A stretch of 64,000 nt of DNA from Escherichia phage dhaeg. Both the position numbers and the translations under genes were made by a program. Positions 7,447 through 16,501 of this stretch are shown piece by piece. Below the pieces are notes generated by a model. That model was not told the DNA's origin. It did no database searches and was given only the letters and a program-made list of their open reading frames with translations. The stretch lies in sequence record MN850609.1; one strand, 5' to 3'. Each line of letters opens with the position of its first letter. Position 1 is the first letter of the stretch.

Positions 7447-7899
7447 ATGATTATCAATGAAAACTCTTGGCATGTTAAATTACATGACCGCTTTTATGCC
7501 AGTTATTCGCGTCCGCGATCATTATGCGCATACTTCTGGAAAATGGTTTGGGTGTGCTTTATGTGTTCTGTGCTTGCAGGTAGTACTATTTTCGGCTTAA
7601 CTGTTGCAGGTGCCGGTATATTGGAGCAGTTCTTTGTATTGAGTACTCCTGTTGGTTTAAGTTTAGGTTTTATTTTAGGACTGATTATAATAGCCCTTAT
7701 TCTAGCGGTAGCTTTTGGTTTGGTGTATGGTCTAATGAATTTATGGGCCCGGTACGATTTACGTAAAGAAGAAAAAGAATGGGAACGCATTAAAGCTAAA
7801 CGTGAAGGAAAGGAAATTAAAGAAAATGTTTTCATTCAATATATTAAAGCTCGTAAATCTAAGATGTGTCCGGTAATCCATTTTGAGGCTAAGAAATGA
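7447..7899 (+). CDS. integral membrane protein
   Basis: 150 aa, two or three hydrophobic helices, basic C-terminus. Confidence 0.5.
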   Translation: MIINENSWHVKLHDRFYASYSRPRSLCAYFWKMVWVCFMCSVLAGSTIFGLTVAGAGILEQFFVLSTPVGLSLGFILGLIIIALILAVAFGLVYGLMNLWARYDLRKEEKEWERIKAKREGKEIKENVFIQYIKARKSKMCPVIHFEAKK

Positions 7900-8906
7900 G
7901 AACAGTTATGAAAGGCTACTTCGGTAGCCACCTTTATGGAACAAGTACTCCGGAATCTGATGTCGATTTTAAAGAAATCTTTGTTCCACATCCGCGTGAT
8001 ATTCTGTTAGGTACGGCAATGAACCATACCAACCTGAACACGAATAACACTGCTTCCAAAAACACTAAAGATGATGTTGACCATGAGCTTTACAGTCTGA
8101 AATATTTCTTTAAACTAGCTGCTGAAGGCGAAACCGTTGCTCTGGATATGCTCCACACTCCGCCTGAAATGGTGGTTAAATCTGATTTACCTGATGTATG
8201 GAAATTTATCCAAGATAACCGTTCGCGTTTCTATACAACCAACATGAAAGCCTATTTAGGGTACGTCCGTAAGCAAGCTTCTAAATATGGTGTTAAGGGT
8301 TCTCGACTGGCTGCTTTACGTGGTGTACTGGCAATTGTTAACCAGATTCCTGAACAGTGGGTTGATTATCAAGAAGATGGTTCTACTAAGCAACGACGTA
8401 CTAAGGTAGAAGATATTAAGCACCGGCTCCCTGAAAATGAGTTCTGTGAATGGGTATTTCATAACCACGAGAAAACAGGTCCTCAAACGTTCTATACCGT
8501 CCTCGGTCGTAAATACCAAACTACTTTGTCATTAATCGAGCTCAAGCAATCTCTGAATAAACTTGATGCCGAATATGGTGAACGTGCTCGTAAGGCCGAA
8601 GCCAATGAAGGTATTGACTGGAAAGCTCTGAGCCACGCTTATCGTGCTGGATATCAGTTGAAGGAAATCTATCAAACAGGCGATTTGGTTTATCCACTTA
8701 AAAATGCTTCTATTATTAAAGCAATAAAAGCAGGTGATATGCCTTTTAAAGTGGTCCAAGGGCTGCTAGAAAACATTGTTGATGAAGTTGAAGTCCTGGC
8801 TGTACAAGCTCATAAGAACGGTATACCTGAGAAGGTGGACATGAAGTTCTGGGACAAGTTCGTCGAAGAGGTGTATCTTGACAACCACAACTCTTATTAC
8901 CGCTAA
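7896..8906 (+). CDS. nucleotidyltransferase-fold protein (Pol-beta superfamily motif GS...DVD)
   Basis: 336 aa; GSHLYGTSTPESDVDF motif; ATGA overlap upstream. Confidence 0.5.
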   Translation: MRTVMKGYFGSHLYGTSTPESDVDFKEIFVPHPRDILLGTAMNHTNLNTNNTASKNTKDDVDHELYSLKYFFKLAAEGETVALDMLHTPPEMVVKSDLPDVWKFIQDNRSRFYTTNMKAYLGYVRKQASKYGVKGSRLAALRGVLAIVNQIPEQWVDYQEDGSTKQRRTKVEDIKHRLPENEFCEWVFHNHEKTGPQTFYTVLGRKYQTTLSLIELKQSLNKLDAEYGERARKAEANEGIDWKALSHAYRAGYQLKEIYQTGDLVYPLKNASIIKAIKAGDMPFKVVQGLLENIVDEVEVLAVQAHKNGIPEKVDMKFWDKFVEEVYLDNHNSYYR

Positions 8907-9102
8907 AGAAGAAATCAAGGTTTTCCTGTCATATGGAAGACCTCATAAAACCTGTCGTTGGTATCTTGAAGTAGTTTGTAGAGAAACCGGTAGACGAATC
9001 AATTTCAAGTACGTATGCAAGCCTACGTCTAAGCAGATAAGACGGTGTATTAACTGGGCTATCAATAATATCCGCTTCCATAATTATTGGAGCGCAATTT
9101 AG
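8878..9102 (+). CDS. hypothetical basic Cys-containing protein
   Basis: 74-aa ORF overlapping end of upstream gene; stop abuts terminator. Confidence 0.3.
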   Translation: MTTTTLITAKEEIKVFLSYGRPHKTCRWYLEVVCRETGRRINFKYVCKPTSKQIRRCINWAINNIRFHNYWSAI

Positions 9103-9124
9103 GAACCTTCGGGTTCCTTTTTTT
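9102..9124 (+). terminator. rho-independent terminator (GGAACC-TTCG-GGTTCC + T7), copy 1 of repeated cassette
   Basis: perfect hairpin plus T-tract; identical hairpin at about 43401 and 63909. Confidence 0.8.
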
Positions 9125-9143
9125 GGGTTCAGCACAAAAAAGT

Positions 9144-9172
9144 GTTTACAACCTAGTAGAGCATGTTATTAT
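9144..9172 (+). promoter_or_regulatory. early promoter (GTTTAC / TATTAT)
   Basis: AAAAAAGTGTTTAC, 17-bp spacer, TATTAT. Confidence 0.6.
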
Positions 9173-9209
9173 GGACCTATCAAATCTACTGAGTGAAACG
9201 GAGAATATA

Positions 9210-10190
9210 ATGTTAACTATCAAAATCAACAAAGGTATCTATCGAGGTAATGAAATCTCTGGTACGTTCATGAGTTCAGGTAAAACCTGGTTCCCTAATA
9301 AAATTCATGAATCCGAAGCTCACCTCGGTGACGGCAAGGTATTTGTACAGATTGATGGTGTTGAACGTGGTGTGTGGGTGTTCAAATGTGACATCGAAAT
9401 GGAAGGTGCTGAAGCTCCTGCAATGGTCACCGAATCCGCTGAAGAAATGAAACACCGCATCAACAAACGTTTTAAAGTAATGAACATGATGACTAACGGA
9501 ATCATCGATGGTAAAATTCGTTCCCTTATCATCTCTGGTGCCGCAGGTATTGGTAAAACATACTCTTTGGATAAAGCATTACAAAATGCCCATGAAAATG
9601 AAACTATCGAATATAAATCAATCAACGGAAAGATTAGTGGAATCGGTCTTTACGAGCAGCTTTGGAATAACCGCGGCCCTAATAGTGTTCTTCTTATTGA
9701 TGATGTTGATGTATTCTCTGACATGGATATCCTGAACCTTCTGAAAGCCGCATTGGATACTGGTGAAAAACGTAAGGTGTGTTGGAGCACTTCAAGTTCT
9801 TACCTCGACGATAAAAATATCGATAAAGAATTCGAATACGAAGGCACCATCGTGTTCATCACCAACGTTGATATTGACCGTGAATTAGAGCGTGGAACTA
9901 AACTTGCTCCACACCTCCAGGCTTTAGTATCTCGTTCCGTTTATCTCGACTTGGGTGTTCACTCAAACGAAGAGATTATGGTTCGGGTTGAAGACGTTAT
10001 CCTGTCCACTGATATGATGCAAAACCGAGGTCTGACCGATGCCGAGACTTATCAAGCTTTAGCATGGATGAAGGCTAATGTATCTCGTCTTCGTAACGTA
10101 TCATTACGTACAGCTCTTTATCTGGCGGACTTCATTGCCACCGATAAAAATGACTGGAGCGAAATCGCTGAAGTTACACTTCTGAAATAA
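9210..10190 (+). CDS. AAA+/P-loop ATPase
   Basis: Walker A GAAGIGKT, Walker B LLIDDVD; start placed at ATG after promoter (listed ORF start 9087 spans terminator and promoter). Confidence 0.6.
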   Translation: MLTIKINKGIYRGNEISGTFMSSGKTWFPNKIHESEAHLGDGKVFVQIDGVERGVWVFKCDIEMEGAEAPAMVTESAEEMKHRINKRFKVMNMMTNGIIDGKIRSLIISGAAGIGKTYSLDKALQNAHENETIEYKSINGKISGIGLYEQLWNNRGPNSVLLIDDVDVFSDMDILNLLKAALDTGEKRKVCWSTSSSYLDDKNIDKEFEYEGTIVFITNVDIDRELERGTKLAPHLQALVSRSVYLDLGVHSNEEIMVRVEDVILSTDMMQNRGLTDAETYQALAWMKANVSRLRNVSLRTALYLADFIATDKNDWSEIAEVTLLK

Positions 10191-10200
10191 AGGTGAAATT

Positions 10201-10542
10201 ATGTTCGAACAATTTAGTTATGACCTTATAAAAACAGAGTTGAAATACTCTAATGCCATGAAACAGTCTATTGAAGACTATGATAATGAATTTAAACACC
10301 AATTCGCCGAGAAGGTTTACAAAACCGATTGTGAAGAAGGAGACTACAAGAGACTGGCCTTGGCCGCGAAGACCCAAGCCTTAATAAATCTAGACCGTAA
10401 GCAGGTTAAGTTGGCAGGCGACTTCAGAGATGAACTCTGCGCCATCAGGAACGAATACCTTATTCGTATTAAACACCAACGGAAAGAGAACACCCAATCC
10501 GCATGGTTTAGTGGGCAAGCCGGTGAAAAAAGTTTTTATTAG
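10201..10542 (+). CDS. hypothetical protein
   Basis: 113-aa ORF. Confidence 0.45.
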   Translation: MFEQFSYDLIKTELKYSNAMKQSIEDYDNEFKHQFAEKVYKTDCEEGDYKRLALAAKTQALINLDRKQVKLAGDFRDELCAIRNEYLIRIKHQRKENTQSAWFSGQAGEKSFY

Positions 10543-10544
10543 TT

Positions 10545-10573
10545 GTTTACATCTCCAGTAGAAATGATACTAT
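10545..10573 (+). promoter_or_regulatory. early promoter (GTTTAC / TACTAT) with spacer/SD inverted repeat
   Basis: GTTTAC, 17 bp, TACTAT; CTCCAGTAG vs CTAATGGAG. Confidence 0.65.
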
Positions 10574-10599
10574 AGACCTATCAACTAATGGAGGTTATC

Positions 10600-11124
10600 A
10601 TGAACGCTAAAGATATTTTTTCACTGATTAATTTTAACAATGGTAATTTCAAATCTGAAAAACAAAGCAAGTTCTTTAACGACGTTGCTTGTGGTAATGA
10701 GATTACCGTATCTGGAGGAGAGATTTACAAAAGCCGTTGGAACTGGATTGTTATCATCGATTCAGTTGGTATTGTAGAGCTCTATAAAAACACTAACAAA
10801 AAACGTACTCTTCACTGGAGTCGTGAAACCAATCAAGCTTATCAAGCCGAGCGTAATAAACGTTTAATGCCTACTGAATCTGACCTGGCAAACGTTAAAT
10901 CAGATATCGCTTATTTTGATAACTTGATTGCCGAACAACAAGCGGTTATTGATAAGTTTGACGAAATCAAAGCTTGTAAAGAGATTCCTGAATTTATGCG
11001 GGAATCAGTAAACGAACAGTATGCCCTCACTTCAGGTCGTATCGAGCAGTACAAATCACAACGAGCTGAACGCCAAGCTCTGCTTCAGAAATTTGAAGAG
11101 CGTTTAAAGACGGTTCTCGCATAA
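10600..11124 (+). CDS. hypothetical protein with C-terminal coiled-coil tail
   Basis: ATG after GGAGG RBS; heptad-like C-terminus. Confidence 0.5.
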   Translation: MNAKDIFSLINFNNGNFKSEKQSKFFNDVACGNEITVSGGEIYKSRWNWIVIIDSVGIVELYKNTNKKRTLHWSRETNQAYQAERNKRLMPTESDLANVKSDIAYFDNLIAEQQAVIDKFDEIKACKEIPEFMRESVNEQYALTSGRIEQYKSQRAERQALLQKFEERLKTVLA

Positions 11125-11125
11125 A

Positions 11126-11150
11126 CGCTTTATACCAAGGATGGTATAAT
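11126..11150 (+). promoter_or_regulatory. candidate middle-type promoter (MotA-box-like CGCTTTA, 12 bp, TATAAT)
   Basis: GCTTTA motif 12 nt upstream of TATAAT. Confidence 0.35.
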
Positions 11151-11187
11151 GGTTCTAGGTTCTTAATTACTTACTGAGGAAATTATT

Positions 11188-12033
11188 ATGTCACAAGCAA
11201 TTAATCAAATTCGTTCTGAAGTTAAAAAAGTTGTTAAATTTGGTCGTATTCCTAGTTCTAAAGAAGTGGTTGAAAAGGTCCTATATATGATGTGGGACAA
11301 GTTCAATGTTTGTACTGTTAAAGATGACTTTATTAAAATCTTTGACAAGACTAAAGGTTCGTTTACGTTAGAAGACCGGGTCATGAAAACTCTTCGTAAA
11401 ACAGGTATGTTGTCTCGTGCTAATGCCAAAATTATTCTTAAAAATTATAACAAAGGCTACGACCTTTATGGTCGTTTAATCCCGGCGATGTCATTTGGTG
11501 AAGTTGTTCAAGACCTTCATGCCAACCAACGACGTTTACTGGCTCTTGGCGCTCGACTTGCAAAAGGTCTTGATAAACAAATGACATTTAAGACTAACGG
11601 TTCAGGTGATTGGATTATCTTTAATATTGTTAACCACCCTGGAAATGAAAATGAGTATACCATTTCGACTTTTAGTGGTTGTCAATACGACAACTGGAAG
11701 TTCCATCTGCGCTTGGCCCTGTCTGAATTAGAACAACACGGTGTTCTTAGTTTTGGTGATGCTGAAACTGGAGTAGGTCAGCGTATTAAACTTTATAAAA
11801 TTAAAGACCTGGCTGAAGAGCATTCAGAACAAGCTCCTAAAATGGAACCTGTACCAGTGCGCAGCAATGAGAAACATCAGGCCCAGATTGAGTATTTTAG
11901 CAATTTGCTTACTTGCTTGAATGTTACAATCCAACAACAAGATGATGAGATTTTCCGACTCTCTGGTCTTAATGCCAAAGCTAAGGCTGAACGCCAGAAA
12001 TATATCGATATCCTAAATCTTCTTAAGGATTAA
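11188..12033 (+). CDS. hypothetical protein with C-terminal coiled-coil tail
   Basis: 281 aa; conserved TIR ACTGAGGAAATTATTATG. Confidence 0.5.
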   Translation: MSQAINQIRSEVKKVVKFGRIPSSKEVVEKVLYMMWDKFNVCTVKDDFIKIFDKTKGSFTLEDRVMKTLRKTGMLSRANAKIILKNYNKGYDLYGRLIPAMSFGEVVQDLHANQRRLLALGARLAKGLDKQMTFKTNGSGDWIIFNIVNHPGNENEYTISTFSGCQYDNWKFHLRLALSELEQHGVLSFGDAETGVGQRIKLYKIKDLAEEHSEQAPKMEPVPVRSNEKHQAQIEYFSNLLTCLNVTIQQQDDEIFRLSGLNAKAKAERQKYIDILNLLKD

Positions 12034-12117
12034 TTATGGAATGGCTCGCTGTTCTTGGTTATGTAATCGTAGCCACGGGTGTTCTGTGGCTAATTTTCTC
12101 AAACATTATAGGTTAAT

Positions 12118-12333
12118 ATGGAAATCTTAGGTTTTATTCTCCTTTACTTTGTGCTAGGATTTATGACGACCTTTATCATTCATAAATCAGGTGATTGGAA
12201 TCCGATCGAAATTGAATCAAGCTATGATGCAGTATTCATTACACTAGTATGGCCCCTACTTTGGGTTGTTTTGGTCATTATGATGGTGTTTTGGCCTATC
12301 GCTAAATTCTATGAAAAATTATTTGGACTTTAA
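12118..12333 (+). CDS. small membrane protein
   Basis: 71 aa, two hydrophobic helices. Confidence 0.45.
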   Translation: MEILGFILLYFVLGFMTTFIIHKSGDWNPIEIESSYDAVFITLVWPLLWVVLVIMMVFWPIAKFYEKLFGL

Positions 12334-12334
12334 T

Positions 12335-13204
12335 ATGAACATTAAAACACGTAAAGAATACTCTATATACGACCATGACACAACTCGTCGTATCGCTATT
12401 GACAGGTTAGCCGACTTTGGTCATATTTGTAATGGTAATTATACTTATGGCGTAGGTCGTAAAGGAACTTATATTTCTTCTTTGAACGATTATTGCCGTC
12501 GCCCAGCCCACCTGTTTGGTGCAACATTACGAGCTAATATCAAAGACCTCTTGGCTACTGCAGGACGTATTTCTACGGTTCCTGTTAATATCAAGAATAT
12601 TAATTTTACGGCCCGTAACCTAGTCATTAATATTCTGTCTGACGGTATTCAAGTTCGTTTTCGCCCCACCTCAAAAGGTAATAAGGCCCTTCGTGAAGCA
12701 TTCGAAACCTTATTCAGAGAAGCAATGACTCGTATTAAGGCCGTAGAATCATATAAAGTTACAACCGATGAATATGCTGATTGTTCCGGGCAAGCCGATG
12801 CAGTGTATATCAGAGTTAAACTAACTAGCGAATATCTTTTATCTTATGCCCCTTATCAACCCCAACAAAAGGACCCACAAATGGAACGTCGTATCTCTGC
12901 AGTATCATGTGACAGCGTAGGCCAGTATGCAGCCTATGACAAATTCAAAACCACCGCTGTGCCTAGTCCATTCAATTCCGAACCGTATCATTGGAAAATT
13001 AAACCTGATAATTCTTTGGTTGTTACTAACCCTACGATGAAACCTATTGAGACCTATTATGCAGATAGCATTCAGGAATCAATCCATCGTTTAAATGGTC
13101 AGATTGAAGATGAGAAAAAGAGCATTCAAGACGTTCTTAATCGCATCAAGAATATGGAAAACCAGCGTGACAAGCTTCGCGCGGCACTATTAGCTCTAAA
13201 ATAA
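12335..13204 (+). CDS. hypothetical protein with C-terminal coiled-coil tail
   Basis: ATG immediately after upstream stop. Confidence 0.5.
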   Translation: MNIKTRKEYSIYDHDTTRRIAIDRLADFGHICNGNYTYGVGRKGTYISSLNDYCRRPAHLFGATLRANIKDLLATAGRISTVPVNIKNINFTARNLVINILSDGIQVRFRPTSKGNKALREAFETLFREAMTRIKAVESYKVTTDEYADCSGQADAVYIRVKLTSEYLLSYAPYQPQQKDPQMERRISAVSCDSVGQYAAYDKFKTTAVPSPFNSEPYHWKIKPDNSLVVTNPTMKPIETYYADSIQESIHRLNGQIEDEKKSIQDVLNRIKNMENQRDKLRAALLALK

Positions 13205-13205
13205 T

Positions 13206-13235
13206 GTTTACATCCAAGGACGGATGGAGTATAAT
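13206..13235 (+). promoter_or_regulatory. early promoter (GTTTAC / TATAAT)
   Basis: GTTTAC, 18-bp spacer, TATAAT. Confidence 0.55.
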
Positions 13236-13263
13236 CCTTTTATCAACTACTGAGGAGAATATC

Positions 13264-14274
13264 ATGACCCGTACTGAATACATCAATGCCTTTACTACGT
13301 ATATCACTGACAATACCCCTCCATTAACCCCATATGAGGTGATAGTTTCCAATATCAATAAATGGGTAGACCAAATTGATGAAGATTTGTCGCTGTATTT
13401 TAAATCTGAAATAGAAAAGATTGCAGGGCGTTTGTTTATCCCTGATATCATAGATACATTTAAAGGTTCTCGACTTCTTTCGCGGCTGGTTAATAAGGAT
13501 ATCCTTTCAGAGTTTGGCAAAGAGAAACACCCAGGTTCCAGCCACGTTGTTAGCTACCAATGGTTTGGTGATGTTTTAAAAAGCTATATCAAAATGAAAG
13601 GTATGGATCCTAGTGGTCTATTTCCACAGCGTTGGACTAGTGAATTTAAGGCTAACTCTGCATTAATTCTCAAAGCGGCCTCTAAAACCATAGTTTCTGG
13701 TGATTCCCGTACTATTCACCCTATGGCTAATTGCATGATTAAAACAAATAGTTATAAAGGAAAAGCAATTATTTCTGTTATTTGGTCACCTAATAGGAAA
13801 CCTAAAGATGACGCGGAAGTTGTAAAGTATCAAGATATTGCTTACGACACCTTGAATATTATCGAACAAGCCTTAGCTTTTATGGATACAGTAGAGAAAT
13901 ATGAGACTCAAGAAGTAAAACATTTCTATGGCTGGAAAGGATACGAGGTCTTAGTAAAAGTTCGCGAAATCAAATGCCATGTTCCAAAAACTGACGCTGA
14001 AATTTACCAAGAAAAATGTGAGGAAATTGTGAACACTGATAAAGAGCCTGCTACATTAGAAGACTTGATTAACGACTTGAATAGCCCTATCATGGCTCCT
14101 ACACCAATTACTAAATCCAAGTTACCGGAAATCGTTGCCTTAGAAAAAGCGTATAAAGATGCCCTTGCTATTAACAAAAAACTGACTGGCCAATATACCG
14201 CTGCCAAGAAACTTTGGGAAGAGTCTACCAATCGTTTAGACCGTCTTGAACAAGCTCTGGAGCTGTTGAAATGA
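13264..14274 (+). CDS. hypothetical protein with C-terminal coiled-coil tail
   Basis: start at ATG after promoter and GAGGAG RBS (listed ORF start spans promoter). Confidence 0.5.
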   Translation: MTRTEYINAFTTYITDNTPPLTPYEVIVSNINKWVDQIDEDLSLYFKSEIEKIAGRLFIPDIIDTFKGSRLLSRLVNKDILSEFGKEKHPGSSHVVSYQWFGDVLKSYIKMKGMDPSGLFPQRWTSEFKANSALILKAASKTIVSGDSRTIHPMANCMIKTNSYKGKAIISVIWSPNRKPKDDAEVVKYQDIAYDTLNIIEQALAFMDTVEKYETQEVKHFYGWKGYEVLVKVREIKCHVPKTDAEIYQEKCEEIVNTDKEPATLEDLINDLNSPIMAPTPITKSKLPEIVALEKAYKDALAINKKLTGQYTAAKKLWEESTNRLDRLEQALELLK

Positions 14275-14492
14275 AATATCAATTAGCCGATGATATCGAC
14301 CAAACTATTCCTGATTGGAATCAAATTATTAAAATTGTCGAACGTCGTGAAAAAGCTTCTAAGAACGTTCCTAACTGTCCTGAGTGCGGAACTGAACAAG
14401 TCCAGTTGACTCAATGGCGTCATAATCCGCTTCAGTATAAATGCCGTCATTGTAAACACCGATTTGAGCGAGATGAAAATGGCAAAGCGTAA
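14271..14492 (+). CDS. zinc-ribbon protein
   Basis: 73 aa; CPECG ... CRHCKH motif. Confidence 0.45.
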
Positions 14493-14715
14493 AGAATATG
14501 TAGAGGCCGCTGATAAGGCGGTCCGTGAACTTACTTTGGCTTATTATAAAGAGCACGGTAAATTTCCGGACAGTTATTCAGTATTGAAATCTGCTTTAAC
14601 TCGTTCGTATAATAATATACTATCTGATGTATATGATTTAAAATACGAACACCTCGAAAAATACGGAACAGAACTTGACCGTTCTGAAGCATTCAAACAA
14701 GTATTAGGAATTTAA
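14464..14715 (+). CDS. hypothetical protein
   Basis: 83-aa ORF, start ambiguous (ATGs at 14464/14473/14479). Confidence 0.4.
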
Positions 14716-14716
14716 A

Positions 14717-14980
14717 ATGTTTAAAGTTTATGGTTACGATTCAAATATTCACCGTTGTGTTTTCTGTGATAATGCCAAACGTCTACTTGATGTTAAGAAA
14801 CAACCTTACGAATTCATTAACGTGATGCCGGAAAAAGGTGTATTTGATGATAAGAAGATTGCTGAACTCTTGGCTGCTCTTGGTCGTGAATCTCAAGTAG
14901 GTTTGACCATGCCTCAGGTATTTGCTCCTGACGGAACTTCTATTGGTGGCTTTGACCAACTGCGAGCATATTTCAAATGA
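14717..14980 (+). CDS. nrdC: glutaredoxin (NrdC-like)
   Basis: 87 aa; CVFC active site; C-terminal GGFDQL typical of glutaredoxins. Confidence 0.75.
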   Translation: MFKVYGYDSNIHRCVFCDNAKRLLDVKKQPYEFINVMPEKGVFDDKKIAELLAALGRESQVGLTMPQVFAPDGTSIGGFDQLRAYFK

Positions 14981-15144
14981 TTGAATTATTGTTGGGTATT
15001 TTGTATCTTATCATCGGTATTGGTTATGCTAAGACCCTAGCTAAATTAGATGATTTCGGTGCAGGTGACTTTTGTTGGTGGCTGACGTCTATGATTTGTT
15101 GGCCTTTATTTCTGGTTGGTGCTTCATTCTGGAACTTTAAATGA
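14977..15144 (+). CDS. small hydrophobic membrane protein (unlisted ORF)
   Basis: 55 codons read by hand; ATGA overlaps at both ends. Confidence 0.35.
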   Translation: MIELLLGILYLIIGIGYAKTLAKLDDFGAGDFCWWLTSMICWPLFLVGASFWNFK

Positions 15145-15449
15145 TTGGATTAAATGAACAGACCATTTTTCTAGGTGATGGTACTGAAGACGACCTAGAA
15201 TATAAACTATACGAATATATGGTTTGGTTGGCTAAAGCAGAAGGTATTGATTTTGTTGTGGCTAACCCGTATGGCGAGAATACTGTTGTAATCGGTGGCA
15301 CTGCTTATGAAGTCCAATGGCAATACGTTGGGCTAGAATCTGAAGAATTTGAAGAAGATGAGCATGGTGATTGGCATCCGGTTGGCCCTTGGTATTGGGA
15401 AAACGGCGAGCCTGATTTTGAAGTAAGTAGTTGGTGGTGTGACCGTTAA
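15141..15449 (+). CDS. hypothetical acidic protein
   Basis: 102-aa ORF. Confidence 0.45.
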   Translation: MIGLNEQTIFLGDGTEDDLEYKLYEYMVWLAKAEGIDFVVANPYGENTVVIGGTAYEVQWQYVGLESEEFEEDEHGDWHPVGPWYWENGEPDFEVSSWWCDR

Positions 15450-15495
15450 GCCATGGTATGTCGCTCGGTGGGAAACTACCGAGCCAGAGGAACCG

Positions 15496-15525
15496 GTTTA
15501 CAACGATTCCGAAATAGAGTATAAT
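15496..15525 (+). promoter_or_regulatory. early promoter (GTTTAC / TATAAT)
   Basis: GTTTAC, 18 bp, TATAAT. Confidence 0.5.
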
Positions 15526-15565
15526 GAACCTTCAAACAATGATTTAATCGATATGGAGTTTGGAT

Positions 15566-15739
15566 ATGAGTACCAAAATTGAAGTTGGCCGTCACAAAGG
15601 CCGTCTGATTGAGCATTCGCTTTACGAGTTGTCGGATTCGGGTTCTTTACCTGACCTAGAATCCGATTTGATTAAAGCTGCTGCTGACTATATCCATTGG
15701 CTTGAAGCTCAACTTCGCTTTGCTGATAAGGCGTTCTGA
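15566..15739 (+). CDS. hypothetical small protein (unlisted ORF)
   Basis: 57 codons read by hand; GGAG RBS. Confidence 0.35.
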   Translation: MSTKIEVGRHKGRLIEHSLYELSDSGSLPDLESDLIKAAADYIHWLEAQLRFADKAF

Positions 15740-15815
15740 TGAAAACTTCTACTGTAATCTTGTGCTTATGGGGAATTTTTAATTTGGGTATGCTTGTTTA
15801 CTTGGTGGGTCAATT

Positions 15816-15992
15816 ATGAAAACTAAATTAGTCTATACTGAAAAGTTAAATGGTGACAAGGTCTGGAAACTTCTTATCAAAGGAAGTCCTACCGACCAGT
15901 TTATGGCCACCTGTATAGGGTTGTATACCCGTCCTACCAAAAAGATGATTCGTCAATTTAAACGGTTGCATCGCTCATTTTATAATGTTTAA
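15816..15992 (+). CDS. hypothetical small basic protein (unlisted ORF)
   Basis: 58 codons read by hand; coupled via 26-codon hydrophobic mini-ORF 15739-15819. Confidence 0.3.
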   Translation: MKTKLVYTEKLNGDKVWKLLIKGSPTDQFMATCIGLYTRPTKKMIRQFKRLHRSFYNV

Positions 15993-15998
15993 TAAATA

Positions 15999-16021
15999 CC
16001 CTTATCTAATAATGGTAAGGG
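15999..16021 (+). promoter_or_regulatory. RNA hairpin sequestering the gene 49 Shine-Dalgarno
   Basis: CCCTTA / TAAGGG stem with AAGGG SD in the 3' arm, 6 nt before ATG; TAATAAATA just upstream. Confidence 0.5.
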
Positions 16022-16027
16022 TTTATT

Positions 16028-16501
16028 ATGTTGCTGACTGGCAAATTATACAAAGAAGAAAAACAAAATCTTTATGATGCACAACATGGTAAGTGTTTGA
16101 TTTGTAAACGTGAATTAAACCCTGATGTTCAAAGTAACCACCTTGACCACGACCATGAATTGAATGGGCCAAAAGCCGGTAAGGTTCGTGGTTTACTATG
16201 TAATCTGTGCAATGCTGCAGAAGGACAAATGAAGCATAAGTTCAACCGTTCTGGTTTGAAAGGTCAAAACGTTGACTACCTCGAATGGTTAGAGAATTTG
16301 CTGGTCTATCTGAAAGCTGATTATACCGAAAATAATATCCATCCTAATTTCGTTCCTGATAAAACCAAAGAGTTCAGTAGATTAGGTAAGGAAGAAATGA
16401 TTGCTGAAATGCTTTCACATGGAATGACTTATAATGAATCTGACACAAAGAAACAAATGGTCGATTCATTTAAAAAACAACTGAGGAAATCGCTTAAATG
16501 A
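16028..16501 (+). CDS. 49: endonuclease VII (Holliday-junction resolvase, gp49)
   Basis: 157 aa; CLIC ... HLDHDHELNG ... CNLCN motif typical of T4 Endo VII. Confidence 0.8.
   Translation: MLLTGKLYKEEKQNLYDAQHGKCLICKRELNPDVQSNHLDHDHELNGPKAGKVRGLLCNLCNAAEGQMKHKFNRSGLKGQNVDYLEWLENLLVYLKADYTENNIHPNFVPDKTKEFSRLGKEEMIAEMLSHGMTYNESDTKKQMVDSFKKQLRKSLK

Follow-up and report, generated by a model that had tools for sequence, protein, structure and literature searches.

The window analysed here, a stretch of 64,000 nucleotides of Escherichia phage dhaeg (MN850609.1), comes, to judge from its sequence, from a T4-like phage of the genus Dhakavirus (Tevenvirinae), and carries at positions 10600-14274 four genes whose products were reported in an initial annotation to end in similar amphipathic helices, referred to below as tails. 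The best relatives of positions 10400-14400, among the 590 phage records matched by megablast, are Escherichia phages dhabil and CLB_P2 (98%) and JS10/JS98 (94%), and the identities of the genes were set by the curated annotation of JS98 and T4. In T-even-type phages, nrdC.3-nrdC.8 form a block of accessory genes that are early and non-essential. The four genes belong to this block, and at least three of them are, as far as sequence profiles and structure models tell, diverged copies of one family in which the helix has been inherited:

10600-11124, + strand: nrdC.8 (174 amino acids; PHROG 2274; Pfam PF26901)
11188-12033, + strand: nrdC.6 (281 amino acids; PHROG 2257; PF26899)
12335-13204, + strand: NrdC.5-like DUF7235 gene (PF23882), 'orf86' (289 amino acids; homolog of T4 NrdC.5)
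13264-14274, + strand: nrdC.4 (336 amino acids; PHROG 1435)

The four open reading frames (ORFs) and the four C-terminal strings first quoted for them match the translations exactly, and curated JS98 supports three of the starts (10600, 12335 and 13264). The genes are nearly, though not strictly, consecutive as had been stated, because a 71-amino-acid ORF at 12118-12333 intervenes between the second and the third.

C-terminal helices of the four proteins

Heptad character was measured with a home-made score, in which hydrophobic residues are expected at positions a and d and polar residues elsewhere, and Pro and Gly are penalised, over the last 28 residues of 122 greedily called proteins of the window. 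Well-known coiled coils (GCN4-p1, Lpp and the N-terminus of tropomyosin) served to calibrate the score. The C-termini of the four proteins rank 1, 2, 3 and 7 of the 122, which for neighbouring genes is not a chance arrangement. When 42 residues are scored, the tail of the NrdC.5-like protein reaches 28.8, the highest value in the whole window, and those of NrdC.4, NrdC.8 and NrdC.6 reach 22, 17.5 and 16, compared with 26 for T4 NrdC.3 and 30 for the Lpp and tropomyosin controls; the tails of the NrdC.5-like protein, T4 NrdC.5 and T4 NrdC.3 score like these controls. Continuous heptads with 11-13 of 16 core positions hydrophobic, extending over at least four heptads free of helix breakers as is required of a coiled coil, are found in NrdC.4, the NrdC.5-like protein, T4 NrdC.3 and T4 NrdC.5. 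The hydrophobic moment peaks at the coiled-coil value of 103-106 degrees for NrdC.3, NrdC.4 (103) and the NrdC.5-like protein (104), and off this value for NrdC.6 (123 degrees) and NrdC.8 (89 degrees); when the latter two tails are shuffled, 8-11% of trials give a 21-mer score as high as the observed one. The heptad-like tail that had been claimed for all four proteins is thus borne out by the home-made score for NrdC.4 and the NrdC.5-like protein (22-29 versus 30 for the controls), and is weaker in NrdC.6 and NrdC.8 (16-17.5).

The GCN4 leucine zipper, Lpp and tropomyosin are canonical parallel coiled-coil oligomerisation domains. The tails resemble them in the 3-4 spacing of hydrophobic residues over six to seven heptads, the periodicity of ~103 degrees, the scarcity or absence of Pro and Gly and the polar or charged character of the non-core positions, but differ from them in that the tail surfaces are unusually conserved within each family and that the tails of NrdC.6 and NrdC.8 score weakly.

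AlphaFold2 (AF2) monomer models were built with family alignments for the NrdC.5-like protein and NrdC.6. The model of the former, with a mean predicted local distance difference test (pLDDT) of 57, comprises a folded body, an unstructured stretch at residues 172-237 and a single helix at 238-288, and that of the latter (pLDDT 80.5) comprises a helical N-terminal part, a beta-beta-alpha-beta-beta unit, a linker at 204-227 and a single long helix at 228-280. The predicted helix, 51-53 residues long, projects free of the body beyond the disordered linker in both models. The tail length of 20-25 residues given initially is therefore too short, since AF2 predicts a continuous helix of ~50 residues behind a disordered linker in the two of the four proteins that were modelled. 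The linkers and helices are located as follows:

10990-11121, + strand: C-terminal helical segment of NrdC.8 after Pro130, residues 131-174, ending ...AERQALLQKFEERLKTVLA (inferred from sequence; rank 3 of 122)
11797-11868, + strand: low-confidence linker of NrdC.6, residues 204-227 (pLDDT below 50 at 208-226)
11869-12027, + strand: predicted C-terminal helix of NrdC.6, residues 228-280 (AF2, pLDDT 79-90)
12848-13045, + strand: predicted disordered linker of the NrdC.5-like protein, residues 172-237 (AF2 pLDDT below 50 for 172-242, no secondary structure)
13046-13198, + strand: predicted C-terminal coiled-coil helix of the NrdC.5-like protein, residues 238-288 (AF2; the densest invariant columns lie here)
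14125-14271, + strand: C-terminal helix of NrdC.4, residues 288-336, PEIVALEKAY...LEQALELLK (inferred from sequence; continuous heptad register)

The family alignment of NrdC.6 contains an invariant PVPVRSNEK in the linker, directly before the helix. The tails gave weak Pfam matches to the coiled-coil families TolA_bind_tri and CdvA and, as the sole PDB sequence match, one to the Smc coiled coil (E=0.2). Hidden Markov models (HMMs) of mixed-family tails found no further ORF with such a tail in the 64-kb window.

Relatedness of the bodies and conservation of the tails

Three of the genes have direct orthologs in T4, to which their products are 69% (NrdC.8), 48% (NrdC.6) and 45% (NrdC.4) identical; NrdC.8 also matches its PHROG at E=3e-102, and 745 phage records carry an nrdC.8-like gene. 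The product of 12335-13204 is, by sequence, a member of the DUF7235 / T4 NrdC.5 family. It matches Pfam PF23882 with E=2.3e-123 and 412 bits (cut-off 30), residues 1-297 aligning with profile positions 1-307, and T4 NrdC.5 in BLASTP with E=3e-19 and 26% identity over 296 columns, and tblastn of T4 NrdC.5 on the window gives a match at 12383-13177. As in T4, the gene has nrdC.6 on one side and nrdC.4 on the other, its ortholog in phage VR20 is annotated as 'similar to T4 NrdC.5', and the two proteins have an equivalent heptad helix of ~50 residues. The T4 protein is longer (340 versus 289 amino acids).

The bodies of the different families were compared with each other by profile and by predicted structure. 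T4 NrdC.3, of which no homolog was detected in the window, is a paralog of NrdC.4, the two matching over their whole bodies with an hhalign probability of 97-98% (E=1e-11 to 1e-12). The alignment of NrdC.4 with the NrdC.5-like protein is collinear; it starts close to the N-terminus, extends up to the terminal Lys and has a borderline hhalign probability of 56-71% (P=4e-5 to 1e-4), with common motifs that include 'ALxxMDTVEKY' versus 'AMxxIKAVESY'. In Foldseek searches of BFVD, the model of the NrdC.5-like protein matches an NrdC.6-family structure from Shigella phage Sf25 (E=6e-4, probability 0.98), and both AF2 models match the same 335-amino-acid protein of Enterobacter phage IME523 at E=8e-9, as well as a protein of Serratia phage PS2. 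The order of elements is equal in the two models, namely a helical N-terminal part, a beta-hairpin/helix/beta-hairpin unit, a linker and a terminal helix of ~50 residues; the fold and architecture of the NrdC.3/4/5/6 superfamily proposed here are accordingly seen, as predictions, in both. The kinship of NrdC.6 with NrdC.3, NrdC.4 and NrdC.5 is probable, though not proven.

The body of NrdC.8 is smaller and different, and profile comparison did not link it to any of the others. The description of the four bodies as unrelated, with which the tails were first reported, thus applies to NrdC.8 only, and fails for at least three of the four, because NrdC.4 and the NrdC.5-like protein appear as paralogs by profile and NrdC.6 appears to share their fold by Foldseek. 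Residues 6-118 of NrdC.8, which correspond to the body without the C-terminal helices, are 32% identical (E=7e-9) to a protein (positions 12648-12989) of the 354-kb jumbo Yersinia phage fHe-Yen9-04, so that the NrdC.8 head occurs outside T-even phages, apparently without the tail.

The searches for function in Pfam, PHROGs and PDB sequences returned only DUFs and PHROGs of unknown function, with no PDB relative besides the Smc match. Foldseek comparison of the NrdC.6 model with the PDB gave nothing with E below 1e-3, its best matches (designed proteins and H-NOX domains) having template modelling (TM) scores of 0.2-0.3 and being taken as noise, so that no PDB relative was obtained by sequence or by fold. 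An exhaustive HMMER search of 1.84 billion proteins with NrdC.4 yielded no more than 3 representative clusters, so that the family is a narrow one without informative remote homologs.

The pattern extends beyond the window: T4 has five sizeable genes at the locus, and four of their products have like ends, namely ...LRNAIEVLK (NrdC.3), ...LEQALQLIK (NrdC.4), ...LNNALNALN (NrdC.5) and ...FEERLNTVLA (NrdC.8). The tails of NrdC.3, NrdC.4, NrdC.5 and NrdC.6, the last included, can be placed in one common heptad register anchored on the terminal Lys. Tail-only profiles aligned better than reversed-sequence controls in 9 of 10 pairs; the sole individually strong pair is NrdC.3-NrdC.5, aligned in register (P=2e-5), and NrdC.3-NrdC.4, NrdC.4-NrdC.5 and NrdC.6-NrdC.8 reached only P=0.01-0.03. 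When ungapped similarity is summed over the six pairs among NrdC.3/4/5/6, it exceeds that of permutations keeping heptad phase and composition (z=3.1, p=0.0014), and the similarity beyond the heptad pattern is confined to the last ~9 residues (p=0.28 once the last 9 are removed), where the four families have the terminal motif L-x-x-A-[IL]-x-Φ-L-K. The tail of NrdC.8 has no specific similarity to the others at any offset (p at least 0.07); the blocks I-x-Y-F-x-N-L, D-E-I and AERQ are collinear in the NrdC.6 and NrdC.8 tails, with P=0.13 overall and P=0.014 for the AERQ block only. Tail HMMs from which one family was left out did not retrieve the omitted family. Residues identical in at least three of the four families occupy 5 of 12 core (a/d) positions and 4 of 30 surface positions, the terminal Lys being among the latter. 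Alignment of the tails, which had been suggested as a check, thus upholds the likeness of NrdC.3/4/5/6 at core positions and in the terminal ~9 residues, and finds nothing specific in NrdC.8. What is common to the tails is, on the sequences compared, a hydrophobic core pattern together with the terminal motif and not one exposed face, the surfaces being family-specific.

Selection was examined by comparing the window with T4 or Yersinia phage fPS-65 and with VR20, the tail being taken as the last 50 and the last 30 residues. In NrdC.4, amino acid identity is 0.65-0.77 in the tail and 0.43-0.45 in the body, with synonymous differences of 0.43-0.58 and 0.42-0.44, respectively, and the most distant NrdC.4 relative, which is 33% identical overall, keeps 19 of the 20 last residues. 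A similar pattern, with tail identity above body identity, is found for the NrdC.5-like protein compared with VR20 and for NrdC.6 compared with fPS-65; the tail and body of NrdC.8 are conserved to a similar degree. Because the tails are conserved at similar or higher synonymous divergence, purifying selection is acting on the protein. Recombination was rejected as the cause, since synonymous divergence of the tail is about that of the body in all but one comparison (it is lower in NrdC.8 versus T4), and constraint on the DNA from overlapping promoters was rejected because the promoter-like sites lie past the stop codons, outside the tails. The notion that the tail is a functional protein element and not noise therefore holds, on the evidence of NrdC.4 and of some relatives of the NrdC.5-like protein and NrdC.6, and the tails and bodies together fit a 'variable head, constant tail' design.

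Gene neighbourhood and variants in other phages

The four genes are flanked on one side by nrdC.11 and nrdC.10 and on the other by nrdC.2, nrdC.1, nrdC (thioredoxin) and gene 49 (endonuclease VII), and the following further features lie upstream of or between them:

10546-10573, + strand: early-promoter-like site upstream of nrdC.8, TTTACA-16-TACTAT with TG (consensus match only)
12070-12092, + strand: terminator-like hairpin after nrdC.6, with a T-rich tail behind a 10-bp stem in which 5 pairs are GC (consensus match only)
12118-12333, + strand: 71-amino-acid hydrophobic ORF between nrdC.6 and the NrdC.5-like gene (from the ORF list; annotated at the equivalent position in UPEC01; without the tail)
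13207-13235, + strand: early-promoter-like site upstream of nrdC.4, TTTACA-17-TATAAT, 11 of 12 (consensus match only)

Early promoters are annotated in phage fPS-65 at places equivalent to both promoter-like sites. A GGAGG ribosome-binding site is present at ~10590, before the ATG of nrdC.8 at 10600, and the true start of nrdC.4 is taken to be 13264 and not 13204 because of the promoter-like site at 13207-13235. The hydrophobic ORF probably encodes a small membrane protein, to judge from its sequence; it gave no tblastn match to T4 NrdC.7, a membrane protein encoded in a different slot in T4, and is not homologous to it.

Supplied alone on a plasmid, T4 nrdC.5 enables a T4 mutant from which the gene was removed by a deletion (evo-3) to infect Dsr1-carrying E. 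coli again (Srikant, Guegler, Laub 2022, PMC9391042), and gp49.2 of T6, encoded a few genes downstream of the block, inhibits the OLD defence (PMC13096335), so that the block lies in a counter-defence hotspot. Beyond the 2022 paper, the literature searched says nothing about the mechanism of NrdC.5, about DUF7235 or about the remaining nrdC.x proteins. In the window, positions 14271-16501 contain homologs of T4 nrdC.2, nrdC.1, 49.3 and 49.1 and a fragment of pin, and tblastn (E below 0.01) detected no homolog of gp49.2, nrdC.3 or nrdC.7; the counter-defence repertoire of the window therefore differs from that of T4 and T6. The NrdC.2 homolog (14271-14492, + strand) has the four-cysteine pattern CPEC...(22 residues)...CRHC, typical of a zinc ribbon. 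NrdC.11 (7896-8906, + strand) matches the RlaP-type nucleotidyltransferases, which are RNA-repair-associated members of the polymerase-beta family (Pfam E=2e-11), and NrdC.10 (9087-10190, + strand) resembles AAA/STAND-like NTPases, with weak matches to clamp-loader PHROGs; the start of NrdC.10 is probably further downstream, the listed ORF having 367 amino acids versus the 326 annotated in JS98.

Several other phages carry altered forms of these genes. The T4 reference nrdC.6 (NC_000866; locus L002, 8567-8680, minus strand) has a deletion of 1 nucleotide compared with other Tequatroviruses (locus L014, 5760-5960), reading GAGCT-GATATT where the others have GAGCTGAATATT. The resulting frameshift affects the last ~37 codons and gives a protein of 275 instead of 295 amino acids whose C-terminal helix lacks its end, and the DNA downstream of the frameshift still encodes the tail in another frame; it is either a recent mutation of the laboratory strain or a sequencing error. 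Manna_094 of Salmonella phage Manna (locus L003, 4215-5252) consists of the body and first half of the helix of NrdC.6 joined to the linker and tail of NrdC.4, with a crossover at the microhomology GATGAAATT (D-E-I) and deletion of nrdC.5 and most of nrdC.4. Scans of viral contigs with alignments of the NrdC.5-like protein and NrdC.6 yielded full-length orthologs only, and no other tail-swapped chimera.

The 155-kb Escherichia phage vB_EcoM_005 (locus L008, ~4606, 6135 and 6941) has in-frame internal deletions in NrdC.8, the NrdC.5-like protein and NrdC.4, and in NrdC.8 and NrdC.4 much of the helix is deleted and the last ~8-10 residues are kept (...EFMERLKTVLA in NrdC.8); these could be real microhomology events or assembly artefacts. 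NrdC.6 of Shigella phage Sf25 (P0137, 378 amino acids) contains an internal tandem duplication of ~83 residues, and a protein of 336 amino acids from an ENA contig of 1873 nucleotides (P0048), which may be an assembly chimera, joins an unrelated N-terminus of ~190 amino acids to the C-terminal half of a DUF7235 protein, with its linker and tail.

Origin and possible role of the shared tail

Our favoured explanation, which we regard as probable, is that NrdC.4, the NrdC.5-like protein and NrdC.6, together with T4 NrdC.3, are tandem paralogs in an anti-defence hotspot, each combining a fast-evolving head with a conserved coiled-coil oligomerisation tail. Duplication of an ancestor that had a head, a linker and a tail would have given the tandem paralogs. 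The head, made up of the helical N-terminal part and the beta-hairpin/helix/beta-hairpin unit, would have diverged rapidly, and a disordered linker of 25-65 residues would join it to a tail of ~50 residues, an amphipathic heptad helix with the end L-x-x-A-[IL]-x-Φ-L-K that would have been kept by purifying selection. Because the bodies are paralogous or share a fold, the tail would have been inherited and not independently attached, and the likeness of the tails can be explained by descent from one ancestral tail followed by purifying selection. As a parallel coiled coil the tail would make each protein a homo-oligomer, whose variable heads would then be offered multivalently to targets; by analogy with T4 NrdC.5, these are probably host defence or other host proteins, the target of T4 NrdC.5 lying within the Dsr1 pathway. 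Oligomerisation via the tail is most likely, and the tail is most likely a self-association module rather than a shared address tag. The helix of NrdC.8 is similar only in a generic way, and this protein is probably a bystander, its place in the pattern being coincidental or very remote.

A counter-defence role may, by the same analogy, extend from T4 NrdC.5 to other members. DSAD1 (PMC10973363, PMC10981675), a phage protein that neutralises the defence-associated sirtuin DSR2, offers a functional analogy for NrdC.5-type proteins, but its target is DSR2 and not Dsr1, and the analogy concerns function. Databases list T4 NrdC.3, NrdC.4, NrdC.6 and NrdC.8 as separate 'conserved hypothetical' families; the link among NrdC.3/4/5/6 is derived here, and neither it nor the head-linker-helix architecture was found in the searched literature.

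Several observations weigh against this explanation. The profiles of NrdC.6 versus NrdC.3, NrdC.4 and NrdC.5 are not significant (P=0.02-0.11), though always collinear over the full length. The model of the NrdC.5-like protein is of low confidence (pLDDT 57), and the TM-scores of the Foldseek cross-matches are low (0.25-0.5) because the linker and helix are floppy, so that the sharing of a fold by the NrdC.5-like protein and NrdC.6 depends on Foldseek probabilities and not on a clean superposition. The tails of NrdC.6 and NrdC.8 are weak as canonical coiled coils (16-17.5), and the score itself is a home-made heuristic other than COILS, Marcoil or DeepCoil. The NrdC.5-like protein of the window has an identity of only 26% with the protein of T4 that was tested against Dsr1. 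Finally, within families the surface positions of the tails are nearly as conserved (0.79-0.91) as the core (0.86-0.97), which exceeds the need of a plain zipper and leaves room for a specific partner.

Such a partner is central to an alternative in which the tail would serve for docking, as a common module that brings different heads to one host or phage protein or site. This alternative would account for tails that are conserved at least as well as the bodies, and better in NrdC.4, for the strong conservation of the tail surface inside each family, and for a terminal motif that NrdC.3/4/5/6 have in common beyond the heptad expectation (p=0.0014); the chimeric Manna_094, which comes from an isolated phage, further suggests that tails are exchangeable. 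However, the initial annotation had imagined unrelated effector bodies being delivered to the common partner, and three of the four bodies appear to be related, so that descent suffices to explain the tail. Identity across families is concentrated in the core (5 of 12 positions versus just 4 of 30 on the surface), whereas a shared docking surface would give the opposite pattern. The failure of the leave-one-family-out HMMs to find the omitted tail, the loss of significance without the last 9 residues (p=0.28) and the free variation in gene content, with no nrdC.3 detected in the window, nrdC.5 lost in Manna and NrdC.6 devoid of its tail in the T4 reference, also argue against common docking, which is not supported and which we consider quite unlikely.

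It is very unlikely that the resemblance is generic, that is, that the tails are ordinary C-terminal amphipathic helices, either packed against the body of the same protein or incidental, a reading that concerns mainly NrdC.8 and NrdC.6. The lack of specific similarity (p at least 0.07) and of any profile match for NrdC.8, its moment peak at 89 degrees, the scores of the NrdC.6 and NrdC.8 tails, well under those of the coiled-coil controls, and the ease with which their shuffled versions attain the observed 21-mer score (8-11%) are all consistent with it. By contrast, ranks 1, 2, 3 and 7 of 122 in adjacent genes would be very improbable by chance, the AF2 helices extend past a disordered linker without packing on the body, the tails are under strong protein-level purifying selection, and NrdC.3/4/5/6 have a common register and terminal motif; coincidence alone would account only for NrdC.8 and, to a lesser degree, for NrdC.6. 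That the paralogous tails form one hetero-oligomeric helical bundle, and hence a single multi-headed complex of co-expressed early proteins, can hardly be considered probable, because membership of the set differs between phages, the tail of NrdC.6 is gone in the T4 reference sequence and nrdC.5 on a plasmid was by itself able to rescue the deletion mutant in Dsr1-carrying cells (PMC9391042), even though the helices of NrdC.3/4/5/6 are equal in length (~50 residues) and in register from the C-terminus, the genes are adjacent on one strand behind early-promoter-like sites, and each family has a distinct, strongly conserved helix surface, as specific hetero-interfaces would have.

The explanation by tandem paralogs with an inherited oligomerisation tail can be carried further, to a proposal that we regard as unlikely as a whole, in which nrdC.3-nrdC.6 constitute an arsenal with a constant tail and variable heads. 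The coiled coil, whether in a homo-oligomer or in a multi-headed complex across paralogs, would be needed to neutralise host immune proteins that are themselves oligomeric, Dsr1 among them; duplication, with a rapidly diverging head, would direct the scaffold at new defence systems, and NrdC.3, NrdC.4 and NrdC.6 would each inhibit a distinct bacterial defence.

That paralogs retain a coiled coil at the C-terminus is in itself ordinary protein architecture. T-even phages, however, have dozens of early genes of unknown function, among which counter-defence genes have been emerging singly, and the family link nominates NrdC.3, NrdC.4 and NrdC.6 as three candidate counter-defence proteins, together with the testable hypothesis that the tail is required for their oligomerisation and activity.

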